Of a DNA stretch of 64,000 nt, positions 699 to 30,892 are shown one piece after another (position 1 is the first letter of the stretch; each line of letters starts with the position of its first letter). Below the pieces are notes generated by a model that was given only the letters and a program-made list of their open reading frames with translations, made no database searches and was not told where the DNA came from. The stretch comes from Chloroflexia bacterium (GTDB taxonomy: Bacteria; Chloroflexota; Chloroflexia; QHBQ01; JAICKM01), in assembly GCA_038228295.1 (NCBI GenBank), contig JBBRPH010000027.1, positions 375 through 64,374 of the forward strand. The letters run 5' to 3'. The position numbers and the translations under genes were made by a program.

Positions 699-1823
699 CT
701 ACTGGTCTGACCGCTTGCGGAAGAGCTTGAGCGGCGCACCGGCGCTCGGCCCCGACGCAGCAGCGCGGGCATAGGCGAGGATGCTGATCTGTGCGGCCAG
801 GTTTTTGGCGACCGTGCGGAAGGCTTCGGCCGGCGCCGACTGCGGCTGGTCCACGGTGATCGGCTTACCACTGTCGCTGCCCAAGCGCACCGCCAGCGTC
901 AGCGGCAGTTCGCCCAGGAACGGCACGTCGAGATCGTGCGCCGCTGCGGCCGCGCCGCCGTGCCCGAAAATCTGTGTTTCGTGTTGGCAATTGGGGCAGA
1001 TGAACGTCGTCATGTTCTCCACGATGCCCAACACCGGCACGTTCAGCTTCTGGAACATCGCCAGCGCACGCTTGGCATCCATCAAGGCCACATCCTGCGG
1101 CGTGCTGACGATCACTGCGCCGGTGAGCGGCAGCGATTGGGCCACCGTCAGTTGCACATCACCGGTGCCTGGAGGCATATCCATCACCAAGTAGTCCAAC
1201 TGGCCCCACTCGACGTCATACATGAATTGGGTTAGCAGTTTGGTCAACATCGGCCCACGCCAAATCACCGGTGAATTATCGTCGGGCAGGAAAAAAGCGA
1301 TGGAGATCATATCCACGTTATAGGTGCGGATCGGCTCGATTTTACCGCTGGGACTGCTTTCCGGCTTGCCGACGGCGCCCATCATTAAGGGCACATTAGG
1401 GCCGTAGATGTCGGCATCCAGCAGGCCCACGCGCGCGCCGGTCTGGGCCAGGGCCAGGGCCAGGTTCACCGCCACGGTGGACTTGCCCACGCCGCCTTTG
1501 CCGCTGCCGACGGCGATGATGTTGCGCACGCCGGGAATGCCCTCACGCTGCGGCACATAGGAGCCTTGCACCCGCGAAGTCATCGTCGCGGTCGCCGAGG
1601 TTACACCGGGGATGGCGCCCACCGCCGCCTCGGCCTGTTGCTTCATCTGCTCTTTGACCGGGCAGGCCGGCGTGGTTAAGACGACAGTGAAATTTACTAC
1701 ACCGTCACTAATCTTTACATTTTCAACAAACTTCAAAGCCACAATATCTTTATGCAGATCGGGATCACGCACCGTCCGCAAAGCATCAAGCACTTGTTCT
1801 TCCGTTACCGCTGTTAGCGTCAT
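699..1823 (-). CDS. mrp: Mrp/NBP35 (ApbC) Fe-S cluster carrier ATPase with N-terminal DUF59-like domain
   Basis: TTPACP, GSGKGGVGKST, DADIYGPNVP, WRGPM, DMPPGTGD and CPNC motifs. Confidence 0.93.
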   Translation of the reverse strand: MTLTAVTEEQVLDALRTVRDPDLHKDIVALKFVENVKISDGVVNFTVVLTTPACPVKEQMKQQAEAAVGAIPGVTSATATMTSRVQGSYVPQREGIPGVRNIIAVGSGKGGVGKSTVAVNLALALAQTGARVGLLDADIYGPNVPLMMGAVGKPESSPSGKIEPIRTYNVDMISIAFFLPDDNSPVIWRGPMLTKLLTQFMYDVEWGQLDYLVMDMPPGTGDVQLTVAQSLPLTGAVIVSTPQDVALMDAKRALAMFQKLNVPVLGIVENMTTFICPNCQHETQIFGHGGAAAAAHDLDVPFLGELPLTLAVRLGSDSGKPITVDQPQSAPAEAFRTVAKNLAAQISILAYARAAASGPSAGAPLKLFRKRSDQ

Positions 1824-9920: not shown

Positions 9921-11393
9921 CTACGGTAGGTTATAGGCATCCCAGTGCCGGCGATCACTGTAAAGCGCAAACACAGGGTACGGCTGGTCGGCCCAGAGTA
10001 GATACCCGTTCTGGAAGGGCTGGGCCGCCGCATGAAACTGGCTGCCGCTTTGCAAGCGCGCCTGTGGCGACTCCTGGGTCGCCCCTAGGTCACTAGCTAC
10101 CGTCGGCTGATCGATCAGCAACTGCCGCAGGCTCGCGCCGGGGTCGGCATCGGATGCCGGCAACGGATCAGGATAGACCCGCCAACCACCCTGCGCGGCA
10201 CCCGTCGCCTCGCGCACCAGCACGAAAACCTGGCCGTGGGCGCTATCACGAAACAGATAGCCGCGTTGGAATTGTTGGATCGCCCCCGCCGGGACACCCA
10301 CTTCATAGGCAACCGTCGAGCAGCCCAGCCGGCGACCGACGGCGGGCCGCGCATATACCCCGCCGGTATACCCGCTCACCGGTAACACCCACGGACACGG
10401 CGTACCGGCCGGCAGCAGCGTAGGACTGGGAGTCGCCGTCGCTGCTGCGGGGGGTGAGGCGGTCACAGGGGATAAGATCGGCACCACGGCCGTAGCGGTA
10501 ACGCTGTTAACGGCCGGTACCGTCGCGGGGCGTATCCCGGTTGCCGTAGCCGTCGGGTTGCGGACCACCGTCACACTTATAAGCGGCCCGGCTGTAGCCG
10601 TAACTGGGGGTAGACGAGGTGGAGTAGGATCGGCCGTATGAACAGGAGTAGCCGGGAAGGCTGTAATTGTAGCACGACTAGCAACCATTGCTAGCGCAGT
10701 GGCTGTCGTGTCGGCAACAAAGGCCGTAGCTCTAGCCGAGACGGCTGTAGCTGTAGTGCGACTAACAACGGTTGCTAGTGCAGCGGGTGTACTGCTGGGC
10801 GTGGACAGCGGTGTAACAGGGGTTGGTTCAACAGTCAGCGTAACTTGCGCCGGCGCAGTTGCGGTGGTCGTCACAACAAGGCTCGTTGTGCTAGGCACGG
10901 ACGTGGGCACGTAGATCGAGGGTGGGGTCGGCGTAGCTGCGGCAGGTAGCAAATGGTTAAACCAGGCCGCCATTGCGCTGCTCACCCCGGCGATCAGCAG
11001 TAAGGCCAAGCCCAGCATAATACTGACCGTGCAACTTTTGCTGCCCAGCAGCGCTTGGAGCATGATCGGACGGCTGGGCGGGGCGGCCGGCGCATCAGAC
11101 GCGACCGGGGGCAGCGCCACCCCCAACTCCTCAGCCAGCGTACGCAACCGCCCGTTGGTCGGGTTTTCGGCCAGCGCCCCCTGGATCAACTCGTCCATCC
11201 GGCCCTGCGACTCAGCCCAATTAATCAGGTTGTATGCAGTGTCCTTCAGGCTGCCCGGCGGCACAATGGCGTCCAGCGACTCACCCAGCCACATCCGCAC
11301 TAGGCGCGCCAGGCTGCTGTGATCCGGAAAGGCGCTGCGGAGCGCGCTATCCAATGCCCGTACTTGGGCTGGAGTGAGAGGACTGGCCGCCAT
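9921..11393 (-). CDS. EAD1-like N-terminal domain + TM helix + Thr/Ala/Pro-rich stalk + extracellular domain
   Basis: LTPAQVRALDSALRSAFP..LARLVRMWLGESLDAI..AYNLINWAESQGRMDELIQGALAENPTN matches the effector-associated domain 1 pattern as recalled; one hydrophobic helix; low-complexity linker. Confidence 0.68.
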   Translation of the reverse strand: MAASPLTPAQVRALDSALRSAFPDHSSLARLVRMWLGESLDAIVPPGSLKDTAYNLINWAESQGRMDELIQGALAENPTNGRLRTLAEELGVALPPVASDAPAAPPSRPIMLQALLGSKSCTVSIMLGLALLLIAGVSSAMAAWFNHLLPAAATPTPPSIYVPTSVPSTTSLVVTTTATAPAQVTLTVEPTPVTPLSTPSSTPAALATVVSRTTATAVSARATAFVADTTATALAMVASRATITAFPATPVHTADPTPPRLPPVTATAGPLISVTVVRNPTATATGIRPATVPAVNSVTATAVVPILSPVTASPPAAATATPSPTLLPAGTPCPWVLPVSGYTGGVYARPAVGRRLGCSTVAYEVGVPAGAIQQFQRGYLFRDSAHGQVFVLVREATGAAQGGWRVYPDPLPASDADPGASLRQLLIDQPTVASDLGATQESPQARLQSGSQFHAAAQPFQNGYLLWADQPYPVFALYSDRRHWDAYNLP

Positions 11394-11405
11394 AGAGTAA
11401 ATCCT

Positions 11406-12167
11406 TTAGTGCACCTGCGCCAACCATGCCCCCACTGTCTGCGCGAACCAGGCCGGGTGCAACAAGTGTACCGCGTGGCCGGTATCCGGCACCAGGATCG
11501 TCTCACACTGTGGGATGCGCGCCGCCAGGGCGGCTACCGCCGCCGGCGGGTTCACAGCATCGTCCGCCCCATTGATAATCAGCACGGGGCAACGGACGGT
11601 GTGCGCACGGCTGAGGCTGATGTCGCCGCTACTGTCCATGATCAACGCCCGTGTCGCGGCGGCCCAGCCCTGCGTCATGGCGCGCGCGCGCGCAACCCCA
11701 TAGCGCGCCACGATCTGGTCGCGCCAGGCGACCCGCGCCGGCGGGGGGGCATCCACCAGCGCCTCGATCTCGGCCACCTCCGGTAGTGCGTTTACGTCCA
11801 GCGCCCCGGCGATGCCCCAAGCCACCACGGCCTGCGCCGCTGCCGGCCGCAGGATCGCCATCAGCAGCGCCACTTCCGATCCATCGCTGAAGCCGCCCAG
11901 ATGGGCCGCCGGCACGCCGAGCGCATCCAGCAACGCCCACATCGTCGCCGCATCCTGCGCGTAAAAGTCCGGCGTGTAGCGCCGCAGGGCCGACCGCCCG
12001 TAGCCCGGCATATCGGGCAGGATCACGCGCCAGTCGCGGCGCAGGGAGGCCGCCACTTGCTCTAGGTCGCGTCCACTGTCGGTGAAACCGTGCAGCAACA
12101 GCAACGGCGGCCCTTGTCCCGCTTCCTCATAGTAAATGTCCCCTGTGGGGAGCGCAATGTATGGCAT
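11406..12167 (-). CDS. Alpha/beta hydrolase
   Basis: LLLHGF, GFSDGS nucleophile elbow, GADD, GH catalytic His; start taken at MPYIALP. Confidence 0.9.
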   Translation of the reverse strand: MPYIALPTGDIYYEEAGQGPPLLLLHGFTDSGRDLEQVAASLRRDWRVILPDMPGYGRSALRRYTPDFYAQDAATMWALLDALGVPAAHLGGFSDGSEVALLMAILRPAAAQAVVAWGIAGALDVNALPEVAEIEALVDAPPPARVAWRDQIVARYGVARARAMTQGWAAATRALIMDSSGDISLSRAHTVRCPVLIINGADDAVNPPAAVAALAARIPQCETILVPDTGHAVHLLHPAWFAQTVGAWLAQVH

Positions 12168-21644: not shown

Positions 21645-23498
21645 TCAGCGCACCACCGCCGTCACCCGCAACGCCGCGCCACACACTAGCCCCAACGCTG
21701 CCGCAATCGCCGGGGCCAACTCGCCCTGGATCGCATCACGCATATAGGCCGCCGGCACGCCCAGCACCGCCCGCCCGCCGGCCGGGTCCAGGCTCAACAA
21801 CACCGCATAGCGCAGCACTCGCCCATAAGTTTCGGCCGGCAGGCCCACCCGCAAATGGATTAACGCCGCCTGCCACAGCCGCCCACACGCTGCCCCGGCC
21901 AAGCCAGACTCGCCGGAAGCAGCAGTATCCTCAGCCGGTAACACAACCACAGCAGGCATTGCGCTCCCGACCGGCACAGCAAGCGGATTAACATTTTCCG
22001 CCAAAGTGCTTTGTGCTTCCGTGCGGCGCTGTGGGGCTAAAGCTGCAGCGCTTCGCGGCGCTTCGTGTCCCGGCGTTGCTTCAGGAGCCGACTCCGCCGA
22101 CCGCCCACGCCGCCGCACCAGGCTCGTAAAATAGGCGCCTGGCCGGCTCACGCGGCCTTTCGCTTGTGCCCGCAGCGTGGCTTGAATGGCCCACTCGTAC
22201 AGGTCGGGTCCGTGATCGGCCACACACTGCCGGTGCCACTCACGACTGCCTACATCGTTCAGTGCCGCAGTGCCCCAATCCAGCAGGGCCGTGGAGTCCT
22301 CCGCACTCAGCGGTGTTCCGGCCGAGGCCAGTGCGCCGTTAACGTTCGTAGATTCATCCGTTTTAACGGATTCACGATTAACGTTAACGAGTGTGCCCGT
22401 GAGTCCGCCTAGTGCGGACTCCTGTCCCAGGTCCACTCCGCCTAGTGCGGACTCCTTGCCCAGCGCCGCGCCTATACCCGCCTCTTCGCCGATCCTGCCT
22501 CCGCCCGATGCGGACTCGTTCGACTCCGCCCAATGCGGACTCCCCGTTCCGCCGACTCCGCCCGATGCGGACTCCATTTGCCGACCCTGCCCGATGGGCC
22601 ACGTCGTGCCGGTTTCGAGGCCGCACGGAGCGGACTCCTGCCGTACTTCTATAGCAAGCCCGATCTCCGCACTCGTAACGAGTCCGCTTGATGCGGAGTC
22701 CGCCTGGATCTCCATAATCCCCCCAGGTATACCCACTCCGCCTGCTGCGGACTCCCCTACCCCGGTTCCCTCCATTATAGGCACGGCACACGGGGGGTTA
22801 GATCCCCCTGTTTCCATTCCGTATTCAAACGTGCTTTGGCGCGCAGGCGCCAAGCGCGCACGATAACTGCCTGGTGCAGTTAGCCGCCGGCCGTCCACGA
22901 GCGTCGCCACGCCGGCGCGGTCCCGTGTGACACGATAGGCGCGGCCCAAGATAGTGGTCAAGCGTGTCAACTCCGTCGTGGGGCCGAGCGGGGCGAGCGG
23001 GATGGTTAGCCAGCCGGTGTGTTTGCGGGTCCAAACGTCGGCATCAAAGAGCAGATACTCCAGCAAGCCTAGCGATGGCAGTGGTAGTCCCCGTGTCACT
23101 CGGTACAACTTCTGCTTGCCGCGTGGAATCTCTACTTCTTCCACCTGCACCAAGCCGCAGGTCAGTAGCAGGTTGCTGTAGCGGGCAATCGTGTCCTGGG
23201 AGGTGTCCAAATAGGCGGCCAGTGCAGTCTGTGTGCAATGCGCCCACCCGAAATGAGGATGACCAGGGGTAGTCTCCTCAAAGCTGTGCAACGCCAGCAG
23301 CAGCCCCAACCCGGTCGGCTTCAGCAGTGGCCCCCACTCTCGCACCAGCGCGGGACTGATCTCGCCCACCGGTGGATAAGCGGATCGCGCCGCCGGGTGG
23401 GCCGTCCCTGCCGAGGTCGGCGAGGCGCTATGGGGGAATATAGTGGGCGCGCTCTCTTTTGCGCTAGGATCGCTGATAATCGCTGGTTTGCCGCGCAT
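21645..23498 (-). CDS. Putative replication initiator (N-terminal wHTH, central iteron-encoded region, C-terminal DnaA-N-like domain)
   Basis: CTQTALAAYLDTSQDTIARYSNLLLTCGLVQV wHTH; SRPGAYFTSLVRR motif; C-terminal LWQAALIHL..ETYGRVL..AVLGVPAAYMRDAIQGELAPAIAAAL resembles DnaA domain I; sits directly downstream of parAB. Confidence 0.72.
   Translation of the reverse strand: MRGKPAIISDPSAKESAPTIFPHSASPTSAGTAHPAARSAYPPVGEISPALVREWGPLLKPTGLGLLLALHSFEETTPGHPHFGWAHCTQTALAAYLDTSQDTIARYSNLLLTCGLVQVEEVEIPRGKQKLYRVTRGLPLPSLGLLEYLLFDADVWTRKHTGWLTIPLAPLGPTTELTRLTTILGRAYRVTRDRAGVATLVDGRRLTAPGSYRARLAPARQSTFEYGMETGGSNPPCAVPIMEGTGVGESAAGGVGIPGGIMEIQADSASSGLVTSAEIGLAIEVRQESAPCGLETGTTWPIGQGRQMESASGGVGGTGSPHWAESNESASGGGRIGEEAGIGAALGKESALGGVDLGQESALGGLTGTLVNVNRESVKTDESTNVNGALASAGTPLSAEDSTALLDWGTAALNDVGSREWHRQCVADHGPDLYEWAIQATLRAQAKGRVSRPGAYFTSLVRRRGRSAESAPEATPGHEAPRSAAALAPQRRTEAQSTLAENVNPLAVPVGSAMPAVVVLPAEDTAASGESGLAGAACGRLWQAALIHLRVGLPAETYGRVLRYAVLLSLDPAGGRAVLGVPAAYMRDAIQGELAPAIAAALGLVCGAALRVTAVVR
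22401..22754. repeat. Eight 21-bp quasi-palindromic iteron-like repeats inside the rep ORF
   Basis: Units (consensus GASTCCGC-N5-GCGGACTC) start at 22401, 22434, 22497, 22522, 22554, 22617, 22680 and 22734. Confidence 0.85.
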
Positions 23499-23583
23499 AG
23501 GTCAATCCTCGTATGAGGGTACATGACCGGCAGGCGGGCCGCACACAGAGTAAACGCTCCCCCTCCTATCGCCGCCGTTGCCC

Positions 23584-23612
23584 TTGACAAGGGATCAAAA
23601 CTGCGGTATGAT
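23584..23612 (+). promoter_or_regulatory. Sigma70 promoter, antisense to the parAB-rep direction
   Basis: TTGACA-17 bp-TATGAT with no protein ORF downstream on this strand. Confidence 0.75.
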
Positions 23613-23615
23613 AGG

Positions 23616-23805
23616 CGTGCAGGGTCTGGAAGCGGCTGTTAAAAGCCCTCCCACTACGCAAGTAGCGGACTTCCAGGATGACGCACTGACGGGAAGAGTT
23701 TACCGGCCACGCTTGCCAGGGTTAAGCCGATAGCTCCTCGGATGACAACAGTGTTGTGAAACCTGCTTTGAGAGGACTCGGGTGACGGCCGAGTCCTTTC
23801 TGTTT
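23616..23805 (+). ncRNA. Candidate small structured RNA (counter-transcript or 6S-like)
   Basis: Bracketed by a near-consensus promoter and a terminator; foldable (CTGGAAG/CTTCCAG, CTAC-GCAA-GTAG GNRA loop); no ORF. Confidence 0.55.
23770..23805 (+). terminator. Intrinsic terminator of the candidate sRNA
   Basis: GAGAGGACTCGG-GTGACGG-CCGAGTCCTTTC stem then TGTTT. Confidence 0.7.
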
Positions 23806-23891
23806 GCCCAGTTTCACCTCTTGCCCCAGGCTTTCCTCCATTACATATACAAAATCAAACGGCGCGCCGCCGCTACAGCCCTCGTGTACCA

Positions 23892-25130
23892 CTAACGTTT
23901 CCGGCTCTTCGGCACCGGCTGCACGTGCCGGGTTGTGATCGTCGGTGCTTCCGCTGTTTGGGCGGCGGCCGCTGGGATTATGGGGGCGCTGCCATACGGC
24001 AGCATCACGGCCAAATGATGCGGTAGCGGCTCGCCCTCGTAACCGGGATCGCCCAGCCGCTCTTTTTCCTCAATGTACTCCATCGCCGCACGTAACTGGG
24101 CGCGTAGCCGTACCATCGGCTCTAGCACCGCGTCCAGGTCGCGTACCTGCTGCCGGTTCAGCGGTACTTCCGTGTCTGCGCCCGGCTCGCCCAGGATCAT
24201 ATCGGCCTGCCGCAAAACGCCCATTAACAGTTCAATGCGTCGCTGCGGGTCGCCGTCCTCAAAGGCTGGTAGCACACTATCGGCCGTGGGTTCCGGGGGG
24301 ACGGGGGTGGCGGGTGTCGCCGGCTCCTTGTCGGTGCGGCCGGCTTTTCGGCGGGCCTGGGGTGGCCCGGCTCCCGCCTCGTCCCCGTTCAGCACCTGCG
24401 CCACAGCCCGCTCTACGGGCAGGCTCCGTTGCTCCTTCAGCAACTCCGCCGTCGCCAGTGTTTGCCGCCCGCTCAGGTCGTGGGTTTTGATCGCTTCAGC
24501 TAAGGCCAGTTGTACCGCCGGGTCATAGGCGACCCGTGTCAAGCCGCGCGTGCGGACTTCGGTTAATTCGCCGCCCAATAACTGCTCAATAGTTGGGTCG
24601 AGGTTCAGCATCGCCATAAAGTTTCGCACTGTGCGCCCTGACAGGCCCAACCGCTTTCCTACAAACTCATCCAACTCGTTTGATGACAGCACGGCGGCTT
24701 CCTGGGCCAGATCGTCGCGGATCTCGGTGATCGCTCGCGCAAACTCCAAATCGCTTAGGTCTTTGCGTTGACGGTTCTCGATCACTCGGTCCAGCCGCAT
24801 CTCGGTATCGGCCAGGTTCACCACTAGCGCCGGCACGGCATCCAGTCCTGCTTCGCGTGCCGCTCGTAGTCGCCGCTCGCCGGTCACGACGAAATAGCCG
24901 CCCTCATCGCGCCGCTGCACCGTGATGGGCTGCAAAATGCCTCGCTCACGCACCGACGCCGTGAGTTCGGCCATCGCTTCTGCATCGAAGTGCTTGCGTG
25001 GCTGGCGCGGATCAGTGTGGATCAAGTCGGTGTTGATCAGCTTGGCATCTTTAAGCGGCTGCACCCCCTCTTCGGGACTGGCCTGCATCAGCCCTTGCCA
25101 CGCACGTTGCGGCACGCGAGATCGGCTCAT
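23892..25130 (-). CDS. parB: ParB/RepB-family partition protein (plasmid-type, long C-terminus)
   Basis: QPRKHFD, GILQPITV, GERRLRAA, ENRQRKDL; the HTH region differs from Spo0J-type specificity residues. Confidence 0.9.
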   Translation of the reverse strand: MSRSRVPQRAWQGLMQASPEEGVQPLKDAKLINTDLIHTDPRQPRKHFDAEAMAELTASVRERGILQPITVQRRDEGGYFVVTGERRLRAAREAGLDAVPALVVNLADTEMRLDRVIENRQRKDLSDLEFARAITEIRDDLAQEAAVLSSNELDEFVGKRLGLSGRTVRNFMAMLNLDPTIEQLLGGELTEVRTRGLTRVAYDPAVQLALAEAIKTHDLSGRQTLATAELLKEQRSLPVERAVAQVLNGDEAGAGPPQARRKAGRTDKEPATPATPVPPEPTADSVLPAFEDGDPQRRIELLMGVLRQADMILGEPGADTEVPLNRQQVRDLDAVLEPMVRLRAQLRAAMEYIEEKERLGDPGYEGEPLPHHLAVMLPYGSAPIIPAAAAQTAEAPTITTRHVQPVPKSRKR

Positions 25131-25996
25131 GGCGCGGCCTGCCGTTTCGCCGGGCGCGGGGAGGTCGCGGCAGCATCCGGGCCACCGAAGCCCGGCGTGG
25201 TCGGCTCATCGGCCACAATCTCCGCCGCCAACTCCTGGTAGCATTTTGCTACCGGCGAATTACGCGCATACAGGCGGATCGGCACCCCCTGGCCCGGCGC
25301 TTCCGCCGCCACCACGCCGTAGCGGATGACCGACTTGAAAATGCGCCCGCGATAGACCTGCCCAATGTTCGTTAGGATCTCGCGGTTCAGATTGCTGCGC
25401 GAGTCGTACATCGTCGGCAGGATGCCCAGGATCTTGATCTCCGGATTAAGCTGCGCCACTTCGTTCACTGTGGTGATCAGCCGATGCACTCCGCGCAACG
25501 ACAGCAGGTGGGTCTGCAATGGGATCAGCACTTCGGTTGCCGCCACAAACGCATTCACGGTCAGCAGGGTCAAGCTCGGCGGGCAATCAATCAGGATGTA
25601 GTCGTAGCGGTCCAGCACCGGAGCCAGTGTGTCTTTCAGCACCCGTTCGCGCGTGTAGTTGCGGAACAGGTCCAACTCGGCCGCCGCTAGATCCAAGTTA
25701 GCCGGTACCAAGTCCATGCCCGCCACGGGGGTCGGGTGGATAATATCAAGGATGCTGCCCTCGCGCCGCACCATTACGTTGTACAGCGTCACATCTAAGT
25801 TGTCCGGATCTAGCCCCAGCGAGTAACTCGCCGCTGCTTGCGGGTCCAGGTCAATTAACAGCACACGCCGGCCCAGAACGGCCAGTTCGGCTCCCAGATT
25901 GACGGTGGTCGTGGTCTTACCCACGCCACCTTTCTGGTTGGCAATCGCGATAACCCGCGTCTTGGCTAGCGTCCGCCCCTGCCCAGTTTCGCTCAC
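25127..25996 (-). CDS. parA: ParA/Soj-family ATPase
   Basis: NQKGGVGKTTT, IDLDPQ, DCPPSL motifs; overlaps the parB start. Confidence 0.95.
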   Translation of the reverse strand: MSETGQGRTLAKTRVIAIANQKGGVGKTTTTVNLGAELAVLGRRVLLIDLDPQAAASYSLGLDPDNLDVTLYNVMVRREGSILDIIHPTPVAGMDLVPANLDLAAAELDLFRNYTRERVLKDTLAPVLDRYDYILIDCPPSLTLLTVNAFVAATEVLIPLQTHLLSLRGVHRLITTVNEVAQLNPEIKILGILPTMYDSRSNLNREILTNIGQVYRGRIFKSVIRYGVVAAEAPGQGVPIRLYARNSPVAKCYQELAAEIVADEPTTPGFGGPDAAATSPRPAKRQAAP

Positions 25997-26072
25997 GGCA
26001 ACCCTCTACTTAATAGTTAACCCAACTGCCTGCATCCGTCGCCCATAAACCCTGATCCGAACTCAGCACTCG

Positions 26073-26429
26073 TCAGGCCGCCGGGCTGCGACCTTCGCGG
26101 CTGATTACGCCCAACAGTTCTAACGCCCGGCGCAAGCTATTGGCGTGGAACTCTAATAAATAAGGATCGCGATCAATCAAGATGGCGCGAATCTCGACTA
26201 AGTGCAGCCCTGCCCGTTGCAACACCAGCACCCGCTCCAGCAGGTCTAGGTCGGCGGGCGTATACTGCCGCTTCCCTTCATCATCGGCCTCGCCGTCCGC
26301 TGCCCCGTCGCGCTGCACCCGCAAGTCTAACTGCTTCTCAATGTTGCGGAGTACGCGCGCCGTCGTCATTTGCCCTCGATCAGCCAACACTGCCAGGGCA
26401 TCTTGTGTACTGTAACCGCGACCTGTCAT
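26073..26429 (-). CDS. MerR-type HTH protein
   Basis: YSTQDA..TARVLRNIEKQLDL..GKRQYTPADLDLLERVLVLQRAGLHLVEIRAIL fits the MerR HTH/wing pattern. Confidence 0.7.
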   Translation of the reverse strand: MTGRGYSTQDALAVLADRGQMTTARVLRNIEKQLDLRVQRDGAADGEADDEGKRQYTPADLDLLERVLVLQRAGLHLVEIRAILIDRDPYLLEFHANSLRRALELLGVISREGRSPAA

Positions 26430-26612
26430 GTGCGTTCCCTGTGGTTCCTCTCGCCCAGCGCAGGCGACTATTTTCCCGTTGAGGCGTTTTGTCCCCTTAC
26501 ACAGCCAATTATAGCCGGTTTTTTTCCAGAGTCAAATCCCTACTACTCTAATGCGATGCCCATGTACTAACATATAGATAAGCCACCAGCCCCAACATGG
26601 TTGTCAGACCTA

Positions 26613-26641
26613 TTGACTTCATCTATGTTTTGCAGTAGTAT
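26613..26641 (+). promoter_or_regulatory. Sigma70 promoter of the ATPase-RHH pair
   Basis: TTGACT-17 bp-TAGTAT about 100 bp upstream of the ATG at 26743. Confidence 0.55.
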
Positions 26642-26742
26642 TAACATCAATGTCAAGGTGATAGCAGCGCATGGCAAGCGCAGGCCAGGTAAAAGAGACA
26701 CGCAATGACGGGCGCGTGGTCGGGTTTTATGAGAGGAACCGC

Positions 26743-27615
26743 ATGACGAGCCAGTACCAAAAACTAGCGATGGCTTTCTTCCATCCATCGTTGCGCGAAG
26801 ACCCCTTCAACCCCGAAGACAGCGCCCGCTATTTCTACCTCGCCGATCAGTACCGCGAAGCGCTCGACCTGCTCGTGCGCCACGTCTTGCGGCGTGGTGG
26901 CCTGTCCATCATCTACGGTGACGTCGGCCTCGGCAAAAGCAGCCTCATGGCAGTACTGCGTGGGCGCACGCGCAACAGTGACCTCTTCAAGAGCTTTGTC
27001 ATGGGTGAGATTCTTGATCCCTCGCAAGTTACGGATGCTGAGTTCACTCGCCAATTGCTGATCGCTTTCGACCAGAAGCCCTATGGTAGCACACGCTCCG
27101 AACTCAGCGAACAGTTCATCATCTTCCTGCAACGCCAGGCCCGTGAAGGTCGCGTGCCGCTGCTGGTGATTGATGAAGGCCAATGCCTTTCCTACGACGG
27201 CCTCGAACGGCTGCGGATCTTCCTCAACTATTCGCTGGACGACCACCGCATCCTCCAGATCGTCATCTTCGGCCAGCTTGAATTGCAGGAAAAGATCGCT
27301 AAAAAGCGCAATCTGGCCTCGCGCGTGCGGTTCACTATGACCCTTGCCCCGCTCAGTAGCGTTGCCCAGGTGCGCGAAATGATCGAATACCGCCTGCGGA
27401 CGGCGGGCCTGATTGACGGTGTGCAACTCTTCGCTGCCGGGGCCATTGAAGCTGTCTACAAACACTCCGGTGGCGTGCCGCGTCACATCGTGAACATTTG
27501 CTCGATGTGCTTCGACCAAGCACCGCGCCTCGACAAGCGCCAGATTGATGCCGACATGGTAGACCAGGTGGCCGCCCGCCTGATGCAAAAGGGAGCCTTG
27601 AACGATGGACGATGA
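26743..27615 (+). CDS. ExeA/GspA-like AAA+ ATPase (standalone)
   Basis: REDPF N-terminal motif, GDVGLGKS Walker A, LLVIDEGQ Walker B, IFGQLEL, SGGVPRHI; GAGAGGA RBS. Confidence 0.85.
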   Translation: MTSQYQKLAMAFFHPSLREDPFNPEDSARYFYLADQYREALDLLVRHVLRRGGLSIIYGDVGLGKSSLMAVLRGRTRNSDLFKSFVMGEILDPSQVTDAEFTRQLLIAFDQKPYGSTRSELSEQFIIFLQRQAREGRVPLLVIDEGQCLSYDGLERLRIFLNYSLDDHRILQIVIFGQLELQEKIAKKRNLASRVRFTMTLAPLSSVAQVREMIEYRLRTAGLIDGVQLFAAGAIEAVYKHSGGVPRHIVNICSMCFDQAPRLDKRQIDADMVDQVAARLMQKGALNDGR

Positions 27616-27997
27616 GAATTACAACCGCTCGTCACGCGGCTGGATCGAAGATCAGATGGCGAACGACCGCGCCCGTGAGGGCGAAGGCCGCCTCAAGCAG
27701 GTTGCCGTCTACTACTATCCCAAGCAACTCATCCCGTTGGACGAGCATCTCTCACGCCTCAACAGCCGCACACGTGCCTATGACGGCCTCAAAATCAACC
27801 GCAGCACCTATTTGCGGCTCTGCGGTGCGGTCCTGATGGATCTCCTTAGCGACCCGGCTTTCGCCGGTAATATGTTTGAGCGTCTTTACGATGAAGCGGA
27901 GCTGGAACATCGCCTGCGCGAACGTCTGCGTGACCTGCTTGAACTGCAACGCGCCTATCAGGAAGGTTCCCTCCGCCCCGTTCTGCCTGACTTGTAG
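27605..27997 (+). CDS. Small protein with possible ribbon-helix-helix DNA-binding motif
   Basis: KQVAVYY (strand), PKQLIPLDEHLSRL (helix), INRSTYLRL (helix); overlaps the ATPase stop. Confidence 0.55.
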   Translation: MDDENYNRSSRGWIEDQMANDRAREGEGRLKQVAVYYYPKQLIPLDEHLSRLNSRTRAYDGLKINRSTYLRLCGAVLMDLLSDPAFAGNMFERLYDEAELEHRLRERLRDLLELQRAYQEGSLRPVLPDL

Positions 27998-28406
27998 AAC
28001 CTGTATCCTCGGCATTGCTCACTGAACCCCTAATAGCATAATAAGCTAATATACTAATAAATCGGTCTGCCCGTACAGTTTCGTCTTTCCTGTATGTGCA
28101 ACGCTGTGCCCAATTAAACACAAACAACCTGCCCCCAACCTCTTGGAAAAATCCTCTCGTAACGCTATATTGCCCTAGGATGAGCTTTACATAATATACC
28201 AATATGGTTATTACTATTTTATCGGCAATTAGCTTTTCAGTGTGCTCAACAGTATAGGGTTTTACGGTAGCTTACTCAGATAATTGCTTGTGTTATGTAA
28301 ACCTAATTTATCGCAGCTTCTCACAATTGCCGTAAATCCTAGAATAGCGTGTCTATATATGCGTAACTGATCCATTTGTCTGCGTGTGCTGGCAATTGTT
28401 GCTAAT

Positions 28407-28495
28407 TATATTCTAGGAACTCGTGTTCCTAGAATATAGATGTAGTAATACGTTTGAATGCTAATCGCGTTAGGAACTCGTGTTCCTAACGCGAT
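28407..28495. repeat. Two perfect 32-bp palindromes sharing core TAGGAAC-TCGT-GTTCCTA
   Basis: 28407-28438 TATATTCTAGGAAC-TCGT-GTTCCTAGAATATA; 28464-28495 ATCGCGTTAGGAAC-TCGT-GTTCCTAACGCGAT. Confidence 0.9.
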
Positions 28496-28566
28496 AACCA
28501 TGTAAGCGGACGATAAAATGTTCCCTTAGCTGGGGCGTTGTGCTCCAAGCAATGGAGAGCATGGGG

Positions 28567-29154
28567 CTAGGCTCCCTTCAACGACCATACAGGCCCATGT
28601 CCAGGATAGATTATGGTGCCGTTGTGGGCACGGATTTTCGCCCAACTCTGTTGTACGGGGTCCAGCGGGTCGCCCATTGTAGCCCAGGGTGGCGTTAAGT
28701 CGCCGGTAAAGGCTTCGCCCGTATCCAGTACGAGCGTGAGGCTGTCGTCTGAATGCCCCGGTGTACTCACGGTTTCACCAAGGATGTCAATTCCTTGTAG
28801 GACGCTACGACTCTCTTCAGCAGTGACTATGAGGTTATCTGTCATGTCAATATCGCTATAGTGATCTTGTGGTTTCATGTGGCGTTGTAACAAGGGAATG
28901 CTTTGCTTTTGTGTTTCCAGCACGATGAGTTGGAGACCGAACTGTTTCAGATCCTGGGCGAGACCCGCATGATCAGGGTGATAGTGGGTGACAAGCAAAT
29001 AGGGGATGGTGGATAATTTGATGCCGGCGCGTTTGCACGTATGCTGAAATTGCGGTAGTGTGTTGGGCCAACCGGCATCAATCAGCAAATGCGGACGGTC
29101 CGTGGCGAGAACATAGTAGTTGGTGGATGCATAGCCCACATTGACGATATTCAT
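28567..29154 (-). CDS. MBL-fold metallo-hydrolase
   Basis: THYHPDHAG, TPGHSDDS, FTGD, PGHG motifs; lower GC than neighbours. Confidence 0.9.
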   Translation of the reverse strand: MNIVNVGYASTNYYVLATDRPHLLIDAGWPNTLPQFQHTCKRAGIKLSTIPYLLVTHYHPDHAGLAQDLKQFGLQLIVLETQKQSIPLLQRHMKPQDHYSDIDMTDNLIVTAEESRSVLQGIDILGETVSTPGHSDDSLTLVLDTGEAFTGDLTPPWATMGDPLDPVQQSWAKIRAHNGTIIYPGHGPVWSLKGA

Positions 29155-29189
29155 TGGAGCCCCCTCCCTTCGGCTATACAGCGGTTGCC

Positions 29190-29636
29190 CTACGACCGTT
29201 CCGTGACATGACTACGCACTACATCGGCATAGATGGGCTGTACGGTGCGGATGAACAGGCCCGCGCGCTCGGCAAACTCGGCTAGCCGTGCCTCGTCTAG
29301 CGGGTACAAGGGATGTGTCTCGTAGAGGCGCACCCAGCCGCGATCCCACTCCTCCAATTCAACCCCCAGGCCGAGCGTTGCTTTGAGGTCGAACAGGCAG
29401 AAGCTGAGGCCATGGCGGATTTGCGCGTTGCGGACGGCAGTTGCTTCGCAGTGCAGGCCCAGTTCCAGCTGGAGCGTGCGTTCGTGGATCCATACTTCGT
29501 AGTGAATCGCCTCATCGCTACCGTACCAAAGTTTGAGCAGGCGACCGTGCGGCTCAATGTGCAGCGGCTCCTCGCTTTCAGGCAAATAGGGTCGCAGGGC
29601 AGCGGGTAGGCGGCGTAGGAACTGATACGGCAGCAT
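29190..29636 (-). CDS. Hypothetical protein
   Basis: Start overlaps the lysA stop; globular, protein-like composition. Confidence 0.7.
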   Translation of the reverse strand: MLPYQFLRRLPAALRPYLPESEEPLHIEPHGRLLKLWYGSDEAIHYEVWIHERTLQLELGLHCEATAVRNAQIRHGLSFCLFDLKATLGLGVELEEWDRGWVRLYETHPLYPLDEARLAEFAERAGLFIRTVQPIYADVVRSHVTERS

Positions 29637-30892
29637 CAGGCACCTCGTGGTAGCAGGTCGGCATATGTTTCGCGGGAACGGATCAGGCAGTGAGTGGTAC
29701 CGGCGACCAACACTTCGGCTGGGCGTGGGCGGCTGTTGTACTGCGAAGCCATCGCAAAGCCATACGCCCCGGCCTGCCGGATCGCCAGCAGCGCACCTTC
29801 GCCCAGCGCCGGCAATTGCCGATCCGTCGCCAAGAAGTCGGACGACTCGCAGATGGGACCGGCCAAGTCGGTCAGGTAGAAATCATCATCGGGGCTGGGC
29901 TGCTGTAGCGGTTCGATGGGGTGGTAAGCACCATAAAGCGCCGGGCGCAGCAGATCGTTCATGCCGGCATCCGCGACGAGCAGTTGCCGGTCGGCGGTGG
30001 CCGATTTGCGGTACAGAACACGAGTGAGCAGTACCCCGGCCGGTCCCATCAGGTAGCGACCGGGTTCCAATTCCAGTTGCAAGCGACGTCCGGCTAGCAA
30101 AGGGCGCAAACCGGTAGCCAGTTCGGCTGGGCCTTGTGGCGCGTCGCCCGGTTGATAGGGAATCGCCAGCCCACCGCCGATGCCCAGGCTGTGCAGCGTG
30201 ATCCCTTCACCGGCCAGTGTATCCCATAAGGCCAGCAGGCGGCGCGTAGATTCTATAATCGGTGCTATCGTCTCCATCTGTGAGCCGATATGGGCGTGTA
30301 GGCCGACCGGGCGTAGATGCGGGTGCGTGACGGCCCAGCGGGTGAGGACTAGCGCCTCATCAGGCGGCACGCCAAACTTGCTGTTCGCAGTACCGGTCGT
30401 GATATACGGATGCGTATGTGCCTCCACATCGGGGTTGACACGCACCGCCACCGCTGCGACTGTGCCCAGCCCCGCCGCGATCTCGGCCAGCGCCGCCAAC
30501 TCGCCCCGCGACTCAATATGGAAGGCGCGAATGCCCGGACCGTGCAGGGCTTCGGCCAACTCAGTGCGGGTTTTGCCCACGCCGGCAAAGACAATGCGGT
30601 CCGCCGGAAAGCCACTATGCTGCGCCACGTACAATTCGCCGCCGGAGACCACGTCTACACTTGCACCGCGCTCGGCCAGCAGGCGGGCCAGGGTCGGGTT
30701 GCTGTTGGCTTTGAGCGCATAGCAGATGCGTAGCGGCACGCCGAGGTTGCCGAGGTGCTCAATCAGGCTATCGTAAGCGGCTTCGAATGTGGCCCGGCTG
30801 TAGACATAAAGCGGTGTGCCATACTCGGCGACCAACGCCGCCAGCGGCACATTTTCAGCGCAAAGCTGCCCTTCCTGATAGTGGAACATCAT
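29636..30892 (-). CDS. lysA: Diaminopimelate decarboxylase
   Basis: YGTPLYVY, YALKANSN (PLP Lys), DVVSGGE, HAHIGSQ, EPGRY, GPICESSD, GAYG. Confidence 0.96.
   Translation of the reverse strand: MMFHYQEGQLCAENVPLAALVAEYGTPLYVYSRATFEAAYDSLIEHLGNLGVPLRICYALKANSNPTLARLLAERGASVDVVSGGELYVAQHSGFPADRIVFAGVGKTRTELAEALHGPGIRAFHIESRGELAALAEIAAGLGTVAAVAVRVNPDVEAHTHPYITTGTANSKFGVPPDEALVLTRWAVTHPHLRPVGLHAHIGSQMETIAPIIESTRRLLALWDTLAGEGITLHSLGIGGGLAIPYQPGDAPQGPAELATGLRPLLAGRRLQLELEPGRYLMGPAGVLLTRVLYRKSATADRQLLVADAGMNDLLRPALYGAYHPIEPLQQPSPDDDFYLTDLAGPICESSDFLATDRQLPALGEGALLAIRQAGAYGFAMASQYNSRPRPAEVLVAGTTHCLIRSRETYADLLPRGA

Follow-up and report, generated by a model that had tools for sequence, protein, structure and literature searches.

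A probable structured small RNA gene antisense between parB and an initiator-like gene in uncultured Chloroflexia

The spacer between parB and the gene of an initiator-like protein, p617, very probably carries a real and previously undescribed gene for a structured small RNA (sRNA) of about 187 nt. On the basis of sequence and comparison, the sRNA is predicted to be transcribed from the strand opposite to both neighbours, and we give a probability of about 0.5 to the reading that it is a repABC-like counter-transcript that limits expression of the initiator p617. The sRNA lies in the window, the whole stretch analysed, which comprises 64,000 nt of Chloroflexia bacterium GCA_038228295.1 (contig JBBRPH010000027.1, positions 375-64,374, forward strand). 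It is regarded as a real RNA gene because its promoter is invariant, its helices carry compensatory changes, its G-U pairs are biased towards the plus strand and it occurs as a single copy per genome. It is linked to the initiator because of a fixed synteny, the position of a second RNA in family f3, the DnaA-domain-I-like C-terminus of p617 and a repeat array inside the p617 gene.

Promoter, terminator and coding potential of the sRNA gene

An earlier note on this DNA, made from the letters of one sequence, had described TTGACA-17-TATGAT followed by a non-coding stretch and a 12-bp terminator with a U tail. These elements were confirmed, and the gene was delimited as follows.

23584..23612, plus strand: sigma-70-type promoter (TTGACA at 23584-23589, 17-nt spacer, TATGAT at 23607-23612)
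23619..23805, plus strand: predicted sRNA of about 187 nt, matched end to end in its homologues by covariance model R1
23770..23805, plus strand: intrinsic terminator with a 12-bp stem, loop GTGACGG and tail TTTCTGTTT, from RNAfold and comparison

Both ends of the transcript are predictions: the start was set 7 nt past the -10 box and the 3' end by the U tail. The promoter agrees with the consensus at 11 of 12 positions, and the helix-forming sequence begins seven bases past its -10 box. A single promoter match of such quality in 64 kb could arise by chance. The promoter segment CTTGACAAG-N13-GTATGATAG is identical in all 12 distinct homologues, with the -35 box, the -10 box and their spacing invariant throughout (12/12), and the DNA farther upstream diverges.

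In the RNAfold prediction the terminator stem pairs 23770-23781 with 23789-23800 around a 7-nt loop and is followed by the tail UUUCUGUUU, which ends at 23805. A simple terminator scan overlooked this element because the U tract is interrupted. Across homologues the stem is 99% paired; seven pairs never vary and four vary only to G-U, and the sole change in the terminator core GGACTCGGGTGACGGCCGAGTCCTTT / GGACUCGGGUGACGGCCGAGUCCUUU (within 23770-23805) is one A-to-G that yields a G-U pair. The U tail is found on the plus strand only, and the minus strand of the window has no U tract past the hairpin.

Two mechanical open reading frames overlap the region, one at 23578-23733 (plus strand, 51 aa), which begins within the -35 box, and one at 23722-23892 (minus strand, 56 aa). 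One- and two-base indels among the homologues break both, and therefore no reading frame is conserved on either strand. Small proteins on either strand were rejected as an explanation of the conservation, since the frames are broken by indels and the only common peptide stems from the invariant hairpin. The description of the segment as ORF-free was in this sense essentially right. As expected of an independent sRNA gene, the sequence contains its own promoter, its own terminator, no conserved frame and a conserved structure.

Distribution of the RNA family

The RNA had been called unannotated, and this description held: scans with the Rfam models, including RF00013 and the ctRNA families, gave no match at E<=10 in 23300-24000, and no family reached its gathering score in the whole window. 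Searches with blastn and covariance model R1 detected the sRNA once per genome in eight of the nine genomes of one Chloroflexia family, which span two genera, and the remaining 31 genomes of this order had no copy. When GTDB genomes were scanned for an exact pattern, the sRNA was recovered in seven MAGs, six of them labelled Chloroflexia, and a metagenome scan added three more sRNA contigs together with two chance matches in coding DNA. Five further contigs were fetched only for their close p617 homologues, and all five carried the sRNA in the parB-p617 gap on the opposite strand. The resulting comparison set consists of 12 distinct sRNA sequences, with both the window's genus and its sister genus represented. 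The RNA family is narrow and all of its members are from uncultured organisms; searches of known plasmid and phage sequences revealed no homologue of the sRNA or of p617.

Covariation supports a branched fold

Two folds had been proposed by eye in the earlier note, a three-way junction and a long bubbled rod. The comparison of homologous parB-p617 spacers, which had been suggested as a check, revealed a conserved structure in which 14 pairs show compensatory changes. The three-way junction stood, with covariation in GCAGG/CCTGC, in CTGGAAG/CTTCCAG and in the GNRA hairpin, and the rod did not, as it showed no covariation beyond GCAGG/CCTGC. RNAfold of 23619-23805 likewise yields the branched fold followed by the terminator hairpin. 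The helices of this fold are as follows.

23619..23623 (GCAGG) with 23762-23766 (CCTGC), plus strand: P1, which closes the whole fold and is paired in 98% of alignment cells
23625..23677, plus strand: 5' domain, a three-way junction of P2, P2a and P2b
23625-23632 with 23670-23677, plus strand: P2 (CTGGAAG/CTTCCAG), with double changes in 5 of 8 pairs
23634-23637 with 23644-23647, plus strand: P2a, with double changes in 2 of 5 pairs
23651-23657 with 23662-23668, plus strand: P2b, with double changes in 2 of 7 pairs
23693..23739 (23693-23707 with 23726-23739), plus strand: P3-P4, a long hairpin with an 18-nt apical loop at 23708-23725
23745..23757, plus strand: P5, a short stem-loop (ACAAC-AGT-GTTGT) that is conserved within the window's genus and has weak support in the sister genus

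In the model alignment of the 12 distinct sequences, compensatory double changes were found in 14 of the 55 pairs and 91% of cells were paired. None of 500 shuffled controls reached these values, and sliding the partners by 1-3 columns lowered pairing to 32-48%. The closing helix P1 changes from G-C to A-U in three sequences. P2b is capped by the GNRA tetraloop GCAA (23658-23661), and GCAA or GUAA occupies this position in most sequences. Within P3-P4, 4 of 14 pairs carry double changes and six carry one-sided changes, most of them to G-U; a C-A mismatch of the window is U-A in L037. Read on the plus strand, the alignment contains 47 G-U pairs versus 26 A-C mismatches, an excess that favours this strand in P2, P3-P4 and the terminator. 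The folding energy departs only modestly from that of shuffled sequences (z = -2.4 for the plus strand and -3.5 for the minus strand), and the case for structure therefore rests on covariation.

The rod was rejected. Double changes occur in two of its pairs, close to the 1.7 that shuffled sequences would give, and only 58% of cells are paired in one of its helices. It shares only P1 with the branched fold, and its other helices never vary or else break; the helix GCAAGT/GCTTGC, for instance, exists in the window and is lost in L097 and L100. A kissing contact of the P2b loop with the apical loop was rejected as well, since it showed no covariation and is lost in the same two sequences.

Gene neighbourhood and the initiator-like protein p617

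That an antisense RNA gene lies between parB and a rep-like gene was borne out as to position, and the layout is that of a repABC counter-transcript. The neighbouring features of the window are listed below.

21645..23498, minus strand: p617, a 617-aa initiator-like protein whose C-terminal domain resembles DnaA domain I
22400-22755, inside p617: eight palindromic repeats GAGTCCGC-N5-GCGGACTC, spaced 25-63 bp
23892..25130, minus strand: parB (ParB_N plus HTH_ParB), convergent with the sRNA
25127..25996, minus strand: parA (ParA/MinD-type ATPase), which precedes parB

The gene order AAA-ATPase, MerR-like gene, parA, parB, sRNA (antisense) and p617 is found at every locus of the family. Synteny from parA to p617, with the sRNA antisense, extends over 8/8 family genomes and the 5/5 contigs retrieved via p617 homologues, and the antisense arrangement of parB, sRNA and p617 is repeated on 13 loci besides that of the window. 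One genome, G008, alone has an ORF inserted between the sRNA and p617, and the sRNA persists there unchanged. This ORF (L032, about 985-1590, minus strand) lies between the sRNA promoter and the p617 homologue and contains the TMEM175/DUF1211-like motif FSDGVFAIAVTLLVLEI.

No Pfam or NCBIfam family was assigned to p617. Its last 80 or so residues resemble DnaA domain I by a weak PDB match, and the tblastn matches of this C-terminus correspond to the first 85 or so residues of genes that Pfam confirms as DnaA. Only 16 close relatives were found among 5.8 billion proteins; none was found in PLSDB plasmids or phage records, and the N-domain was absent from 400 other genomes of the phylum. The internal repeats of p617 are conserved in both genera and occur at no other locus of the genome, apart from one weak match on contig C78. 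They could be iterons of the initiator or a centromere for the adjacent ParB. The ParA and ParB of the module score far under the cut-offs of the RepA and RepB equivalogs (123 vs 348 bits and 59 vs 201 bits, respectively).

In G004 a 2.6-Mb contig carries the module at position 1.74 Mb, and dnaA is on a different contig of that genome. The cumulative GC skew has its minimum near 28-30 kb of the window, a few kb beyond parA, and on the 2.6-Mb contig of G004 the skew showed no clean switch or clear origin at the module. The GC content of the window dips to 0.55 in 26000-30000.

Conserved pairings that extend beyond the predicted transcript

Two further elements that covary lie partly or wholly outside the predicted sRNA, and neither was assigned to a strand.

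23756..23762: first arm of a clamp helix (GTGAAAC), which pairs with 23811-23817 and encloses the terminator hairpin
23811..23817: second arm of the clamp helix (GTTTCAC), past the U tail and outside the predicted sRNA
23547..23618: dyad symmetry centred on the -35 box, outside the sRNA transcript, with arms that covary

The clamp helix shows double changes in 5 of 7 pairs, and the variants GUAGAAA/UUUCUAC, GUAAG/CUUAC and CAAGCUC/GAGCUUG replace it in other genomes. In the first eight sequences its pairing is complete in 55 of 56 cells on the minus strand versus 50 of 56 on the plus strand. Its arms were rejected as parS half-sites, as they covary rather than keep their sequence. In the promoter dyad, the -10 box and spacer form one side and upstream DNA forms the other (CCTATC...GATAGG, CCGC...GCGG), with the -35 box as the centre of the palindrome CCCTTGACAAGGG. 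L097 has 12-bp arms of a different sequence, and no clear strand preference was seen. Such a dyad could act as a hairpin within the RNA of the p617 leader or, alternatively, as a feature at the DNA level.

Neither the clamp nor the dyad can form within the sRNA as delimited. A minus-strand transcript across the whole sRNA gene would be their simplest account. These pairings suggest, at the level of sequence, that the opposite strand is transcribed across the sRNA gene, in which case the sRNA would be a true cis-antisense RNA of the p617 leader. The clamp could be explained instead by a read-through isoform of the sRNA. Neither a promoter for p617 nor read-through from parB was demonstrable, and the parB gene of the window has a terminator-like hairpin after it on the minus strand.

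Nearly invariant blocks and searches for their partners

Across the two genera the stems of the sRNA diverge by about 30%, in contrast to its apical loop and terminator hairpin, which are close to invariant. Two conserved stretches in addition to the terminator core stand out at and near the sRNA.

23710..23728, plus strand: nearly invariant segment CGCTTGCCAGGGTTAAGCC / CGCUUGCCAGGGUUAAGCC, comprising most of the apical loop and the top of P4
23550..23566, no strand assigned: conserved block upstream of the promoter, with the minus-strand consensus GGGAG-N2-4-GYTTGCCG, present in both genera

The first of these is single-copy in the genome and departs from identity only twice among the 12 distinct sequences, by a G to A change in L100 and by the loss of one base in L006. 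A purely cis-antisense role would not require the apical loop and terminator hairpin to be so constant over two genera, and an additional partner of the sRNA, either a protein or a second RNA site, is therefore suggested. A protein partner would be the most attractive possibility for the two frozen blocks, the segment CGCUUGCCAGGGUUAAGCC and the terminator core GGACUCGGGUGACGGCCGAGUCCUUU.

Several candidate partners were tried and rejected. Trans targets of the invariant loop were sought as complementary 11-12-nt words, which occur elsewhere in the genome only at chance rate. In L029, L031 and L035 the loop can pair with the start region of p617 (GGCAAGC); this pairing is disrupted in L037, L006 and L034 and, in part, in the window. 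A switch in the leader built from three elements (the complement of the loop, the GYTTGCCG block and the start region) was not supported, since blocking the sRNA target gave no consistent change in accessibility. The terminator arms contain GGACTC/GAGTCC, which are the outer hexamers of the repeats inside p617, and P2b carries GCGGACT, which matches seven of the eight bases of a repeat arm. By chance, about one quarter of 187-nt stretches would have a 6-mer in common with the p617 repeats. The terminator was rejected as a site shared with these repeats, as the likeness is just a 6-mer, its relative orientation is opposite and nothing corresponds to it in the sister family.

A second antisense RNA in a sister family

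Homologues of p617, about 50% identical to it in the N-domain, are encoded in f3, another family of the same order. The genes upstream of them are the same, except that parB is followed by two additional genes, of which one has a P22_AR_N domain and the other encodes a TPR protein. An antisense RNA was also predicted at this locus.

L072, 5776 down to 5570, minus strand: f3 antisense RNA of about 170 nt, with a TTGACA-17-TATCAT promoter and a strong terminator

The f3 RNA is directly upstream of, and antisense to, the f3 p617 homologue and is conserved in four genomes (L072, L073, L074 and L053). Compensatory changes were found in 14 of its 42 predicted pairs among these four sequences. The order of its elements is similar to that of the RNA of the window's family (f1): 5' stem, GNRA hairpin, long hairpin, small hairpin and terminator. 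It has an invariant large loop, GCCCUCUCA(C/U)AGCC, and a conserved terminator loop, GGAUGGCCCC. Homology of the f1 and f3 RNAs was rejected, since neither a covariance model nor blastn gave significant similarity between them; their loops differ and only the order of elements is alike. Taken together, the two families indicate that the constant feature is a position antisense to, and just upstream of, an initiator-type gene, and that the upstream neighbour varies. The f3 p617 homologue carries parS-like repeats, TGTTTCAC-NN-GTGAACA (L072 6650-7245), where p617 has its own repeats, and the f3 RNA showed no similarity to the repeats of that family.

Possible function of the sRNA

The sRNA most probably represents a new structured RNA family that is not a member of any known ctRNA family and that would act as a replication-control counter-transcript; a function is proposed for it from its position only. 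In such a mechanism the sRNA would be made from its near-consensus promoter and end at its own intrinsic terminator, as its sequence and conservation suggest. A transcript of the parAB/p617 strand would cross the spacer, to which the two covarying helices point, and the sRNA would be complementary over its full length to the p617 leader. As is known from other antisense systems, the two RNAs may meet via complementary hairpin loops, namely the 18-nt apical loop and the 7-nt terminator loop. Pairing could then lower p617 expression, speculatively by cleavage of the duplex or by refolding or blocking of the leader. The dosage of the sRNA would track gene copy number, which, as in the case of the repABC counter-transcript, could provide negative feedback on the supply of initiator.

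A number of findings speak against a counter-transcript. A distance of 107 nt separates the sRNA from the p617 ribosome-binding site; the sRNA is upstream of this site and has no overlap with it. When leaders from seven genomes were folded with the target blocked, accessibility of the start site was not consistently changed, and no attenuator-type terminator was evident in the p617 leader. The target of a cis-antisense RNA covaries with it automatically, and a closed, multi-branched fold with nearly invariant loops is atypical for such RNAs. In addition, an ORF separates the sRNA from p617 in G008, and in G004 the module is on a contig of 2.6 Mb.

We consider it possible, at odds well below even, that the sRNA instead binds a protein, such as p617, ParB or another factor, or acts in trans by pairing of its invariant 18-nt loop with a distant mRNA. 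Co-regulation or co-inheritance, rather than antisense pairing, would then account for its position beside the partition and initiator genes. Such a role is consistent with the compact multi-branched fold closed by P1, the GNRA hairpin and the large apical loop, with the contrast between the frozen loop and terminator hairpin and the diverged stems, and with the unchanged sRNA of G008 despite the ORF that separates it from p617. Against it, the genome is not enriched in sites complementary to the loop, with 12-nt matches at chance rate, and no conserved pairing joins the loop to the start region of p617. The f3 RNA, which has the same position and layout and entirely different loops, also argues against a universal conserved partner.

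Tentatively, both kinds of role may be combined. The locus could be an independently evolved counterpart of the repABC module, composed of ParA, ParB, a new initiator family whose cis sites lie within its own gene, and a large folded counter-transcript with a second function. The invariant apical loop and terminator hairpin would serve that second function, for example in binding the initiator or ParB, and the sRNA would then be a protein-partnered regulatory RNA.

It is unlikely that the structure belongs mainly to a minus-strand mRNA (the p617 leader or the parB 3' UTR) or to DNA sites bound by ParB or p617, with a plus-strand promoter and terminator that are secondary or non-functional. In favour of this reading, parts of the clamp and of the promoter dyad are located outside the sRNA, and the clamp has its better fit on the minus strand. 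The minus strand also departs from shuffles in its folding no less than the plus strand does, and the terminator arms and P2b resemble the p617 repeats. However, the exact hexamers at 17-nt spacing in 12/12 sequences, 7 nt before P1, are hard to explain without plus-strand transcription. The ratio of 47 G-U pairs to 26 A-C mismatches also favours the plus strand in P2, P3-P4 and the terminator, and the U tail exists on that strand only. The shared 6-mer is of a kind expected by chance at the rate given above, and the f3 RNA is unlike the repeats of its own family.

The earlier note had also suggested a 6S-like RNA, which would sequester RNA polymerase by mimicry of open promoter DNA. This reading is very improbable and was rejected: length alone, similar in the two RNAs, and the rod pairings drawn by eye in one sequence favour this reading, whereas RF00013 gave no match at 23300-24000 even at E<=10, its candidate in this genome is on another contig (G000:C16:65434-65615, 36 bits, E=2e-5, below the 46.4-bit cut-off), of 41 relatives, 36 have one such locus elsewhere in the genome (14 score above the cut-off), and covariation backs the branched fold and not a centrally bubbled rod, one helix of which is gone in L097 and L100.

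Comparison with known antisense systems

CopA of R1, RNA I of ColE1, RNAIII of pIP501 and the pT181 countertranscripts are constitutive, structured antisense RNAs to the rep leader, and plasmid copy-control antisense RNAs expose hairpin loops that are available for kissing contacts, features in which the sRNA is predicted to resemble them. These plasmid RNAs are chains of independent stem-loops, whereas the sRNA described here is closed by a terminal helix into a branched fold. They overlap the rep leader, whereas an overlap of the sRNA with the p617 leader is predicted, and the loops of the sRNA are far more conserved than a cis-acting pair needs.

In repABC modules an antisense RNA lies in the repB-repC spacer and the origin is inside repC (PMC4492784). 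The repABC ctRNA (inc-alpha; Rfam ctRNA_p42d) is, like the sRNA, located on the opposite strand in the spacer between the ParB-type and initiator genes of a parA-parB-initiator cassette, and presumed cis-acting replication sites likewise lie inside the initiator coding sequence, represented here by the p617 repeats (PMC4492784). The ctRNA also has its own strong promoter and intrinsic terminator, both of which are predicted for the sRNA. In contrast, no sequence or model similarity links the two RNAs (Rfam ctRNA families, E<=10). The ctRNA is about 55-60 nt long with one stem-loop, whereas the sRNA, at about 187 nt, is three times longer and has five helices and a terminator. The repABC initiator RepC is unrelated to p617, which belongs to no Pfam family and has a DnaA-domain-I-like C-terminus, and the ParA and ParB of repABC are of the RepA/RepB type, whereas those found here score far below these equivalogs. 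Unlike in repABC, no attenuator hairpin was found and the module is on a megabase contig. PMC7610768 reports repABC only from Alphaproteobacteria; the hosts of the sRNA are Chloroflexia.

The RNA family itself is well supported, with 12 distinct sequences, 14 covarying pairs and two blocks whose sequence barely changes. If the proposed control of p617 is true, antisense control of an initiator in a partition-replication cassette would have arisen far from the Alphaproteobacteria as a convergent control logic, with an unrelated initiator and an unrelated, much larger RNA than in repABC. It would also provide a handle on the maintenance of large Chloroflexia genomes and on a possible second or domesticated replicon. 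The f1 and f3 RNAs, alike in layout and different in their loops, raise the question of whether the loops set specificity (incompatibility).

Additional observations at related loci

A 437-aa protein without a Pfam family is encoded on contig C70 of G000 (about 10223-11536; L068 571-1884) and has a DnaA-domain-I-like C-terminus with 63% identity to that of p617 over 73 aa. Another ParB gene is about 4 kb away (C70:5817-6089), and a second module, of a different kind, may be present at this locus.

In the window, the plus-strand motifs CACCTC and CCTCC are conserved at a fixed spacing within 23806-23845, in the interval from the sRNA terminator to the stop codon of parB. On the minus strand they read GAGGTG and GGAGG, and no conserved minus-strand start codon follows them. 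Tandem AACCTCA heptads were observed after the sRNA terminator in G008 (L032, about 1890-1960), and tandem CTCAAAA heptads precede the start of the f3 p617 homologue (L072 5870-5900).
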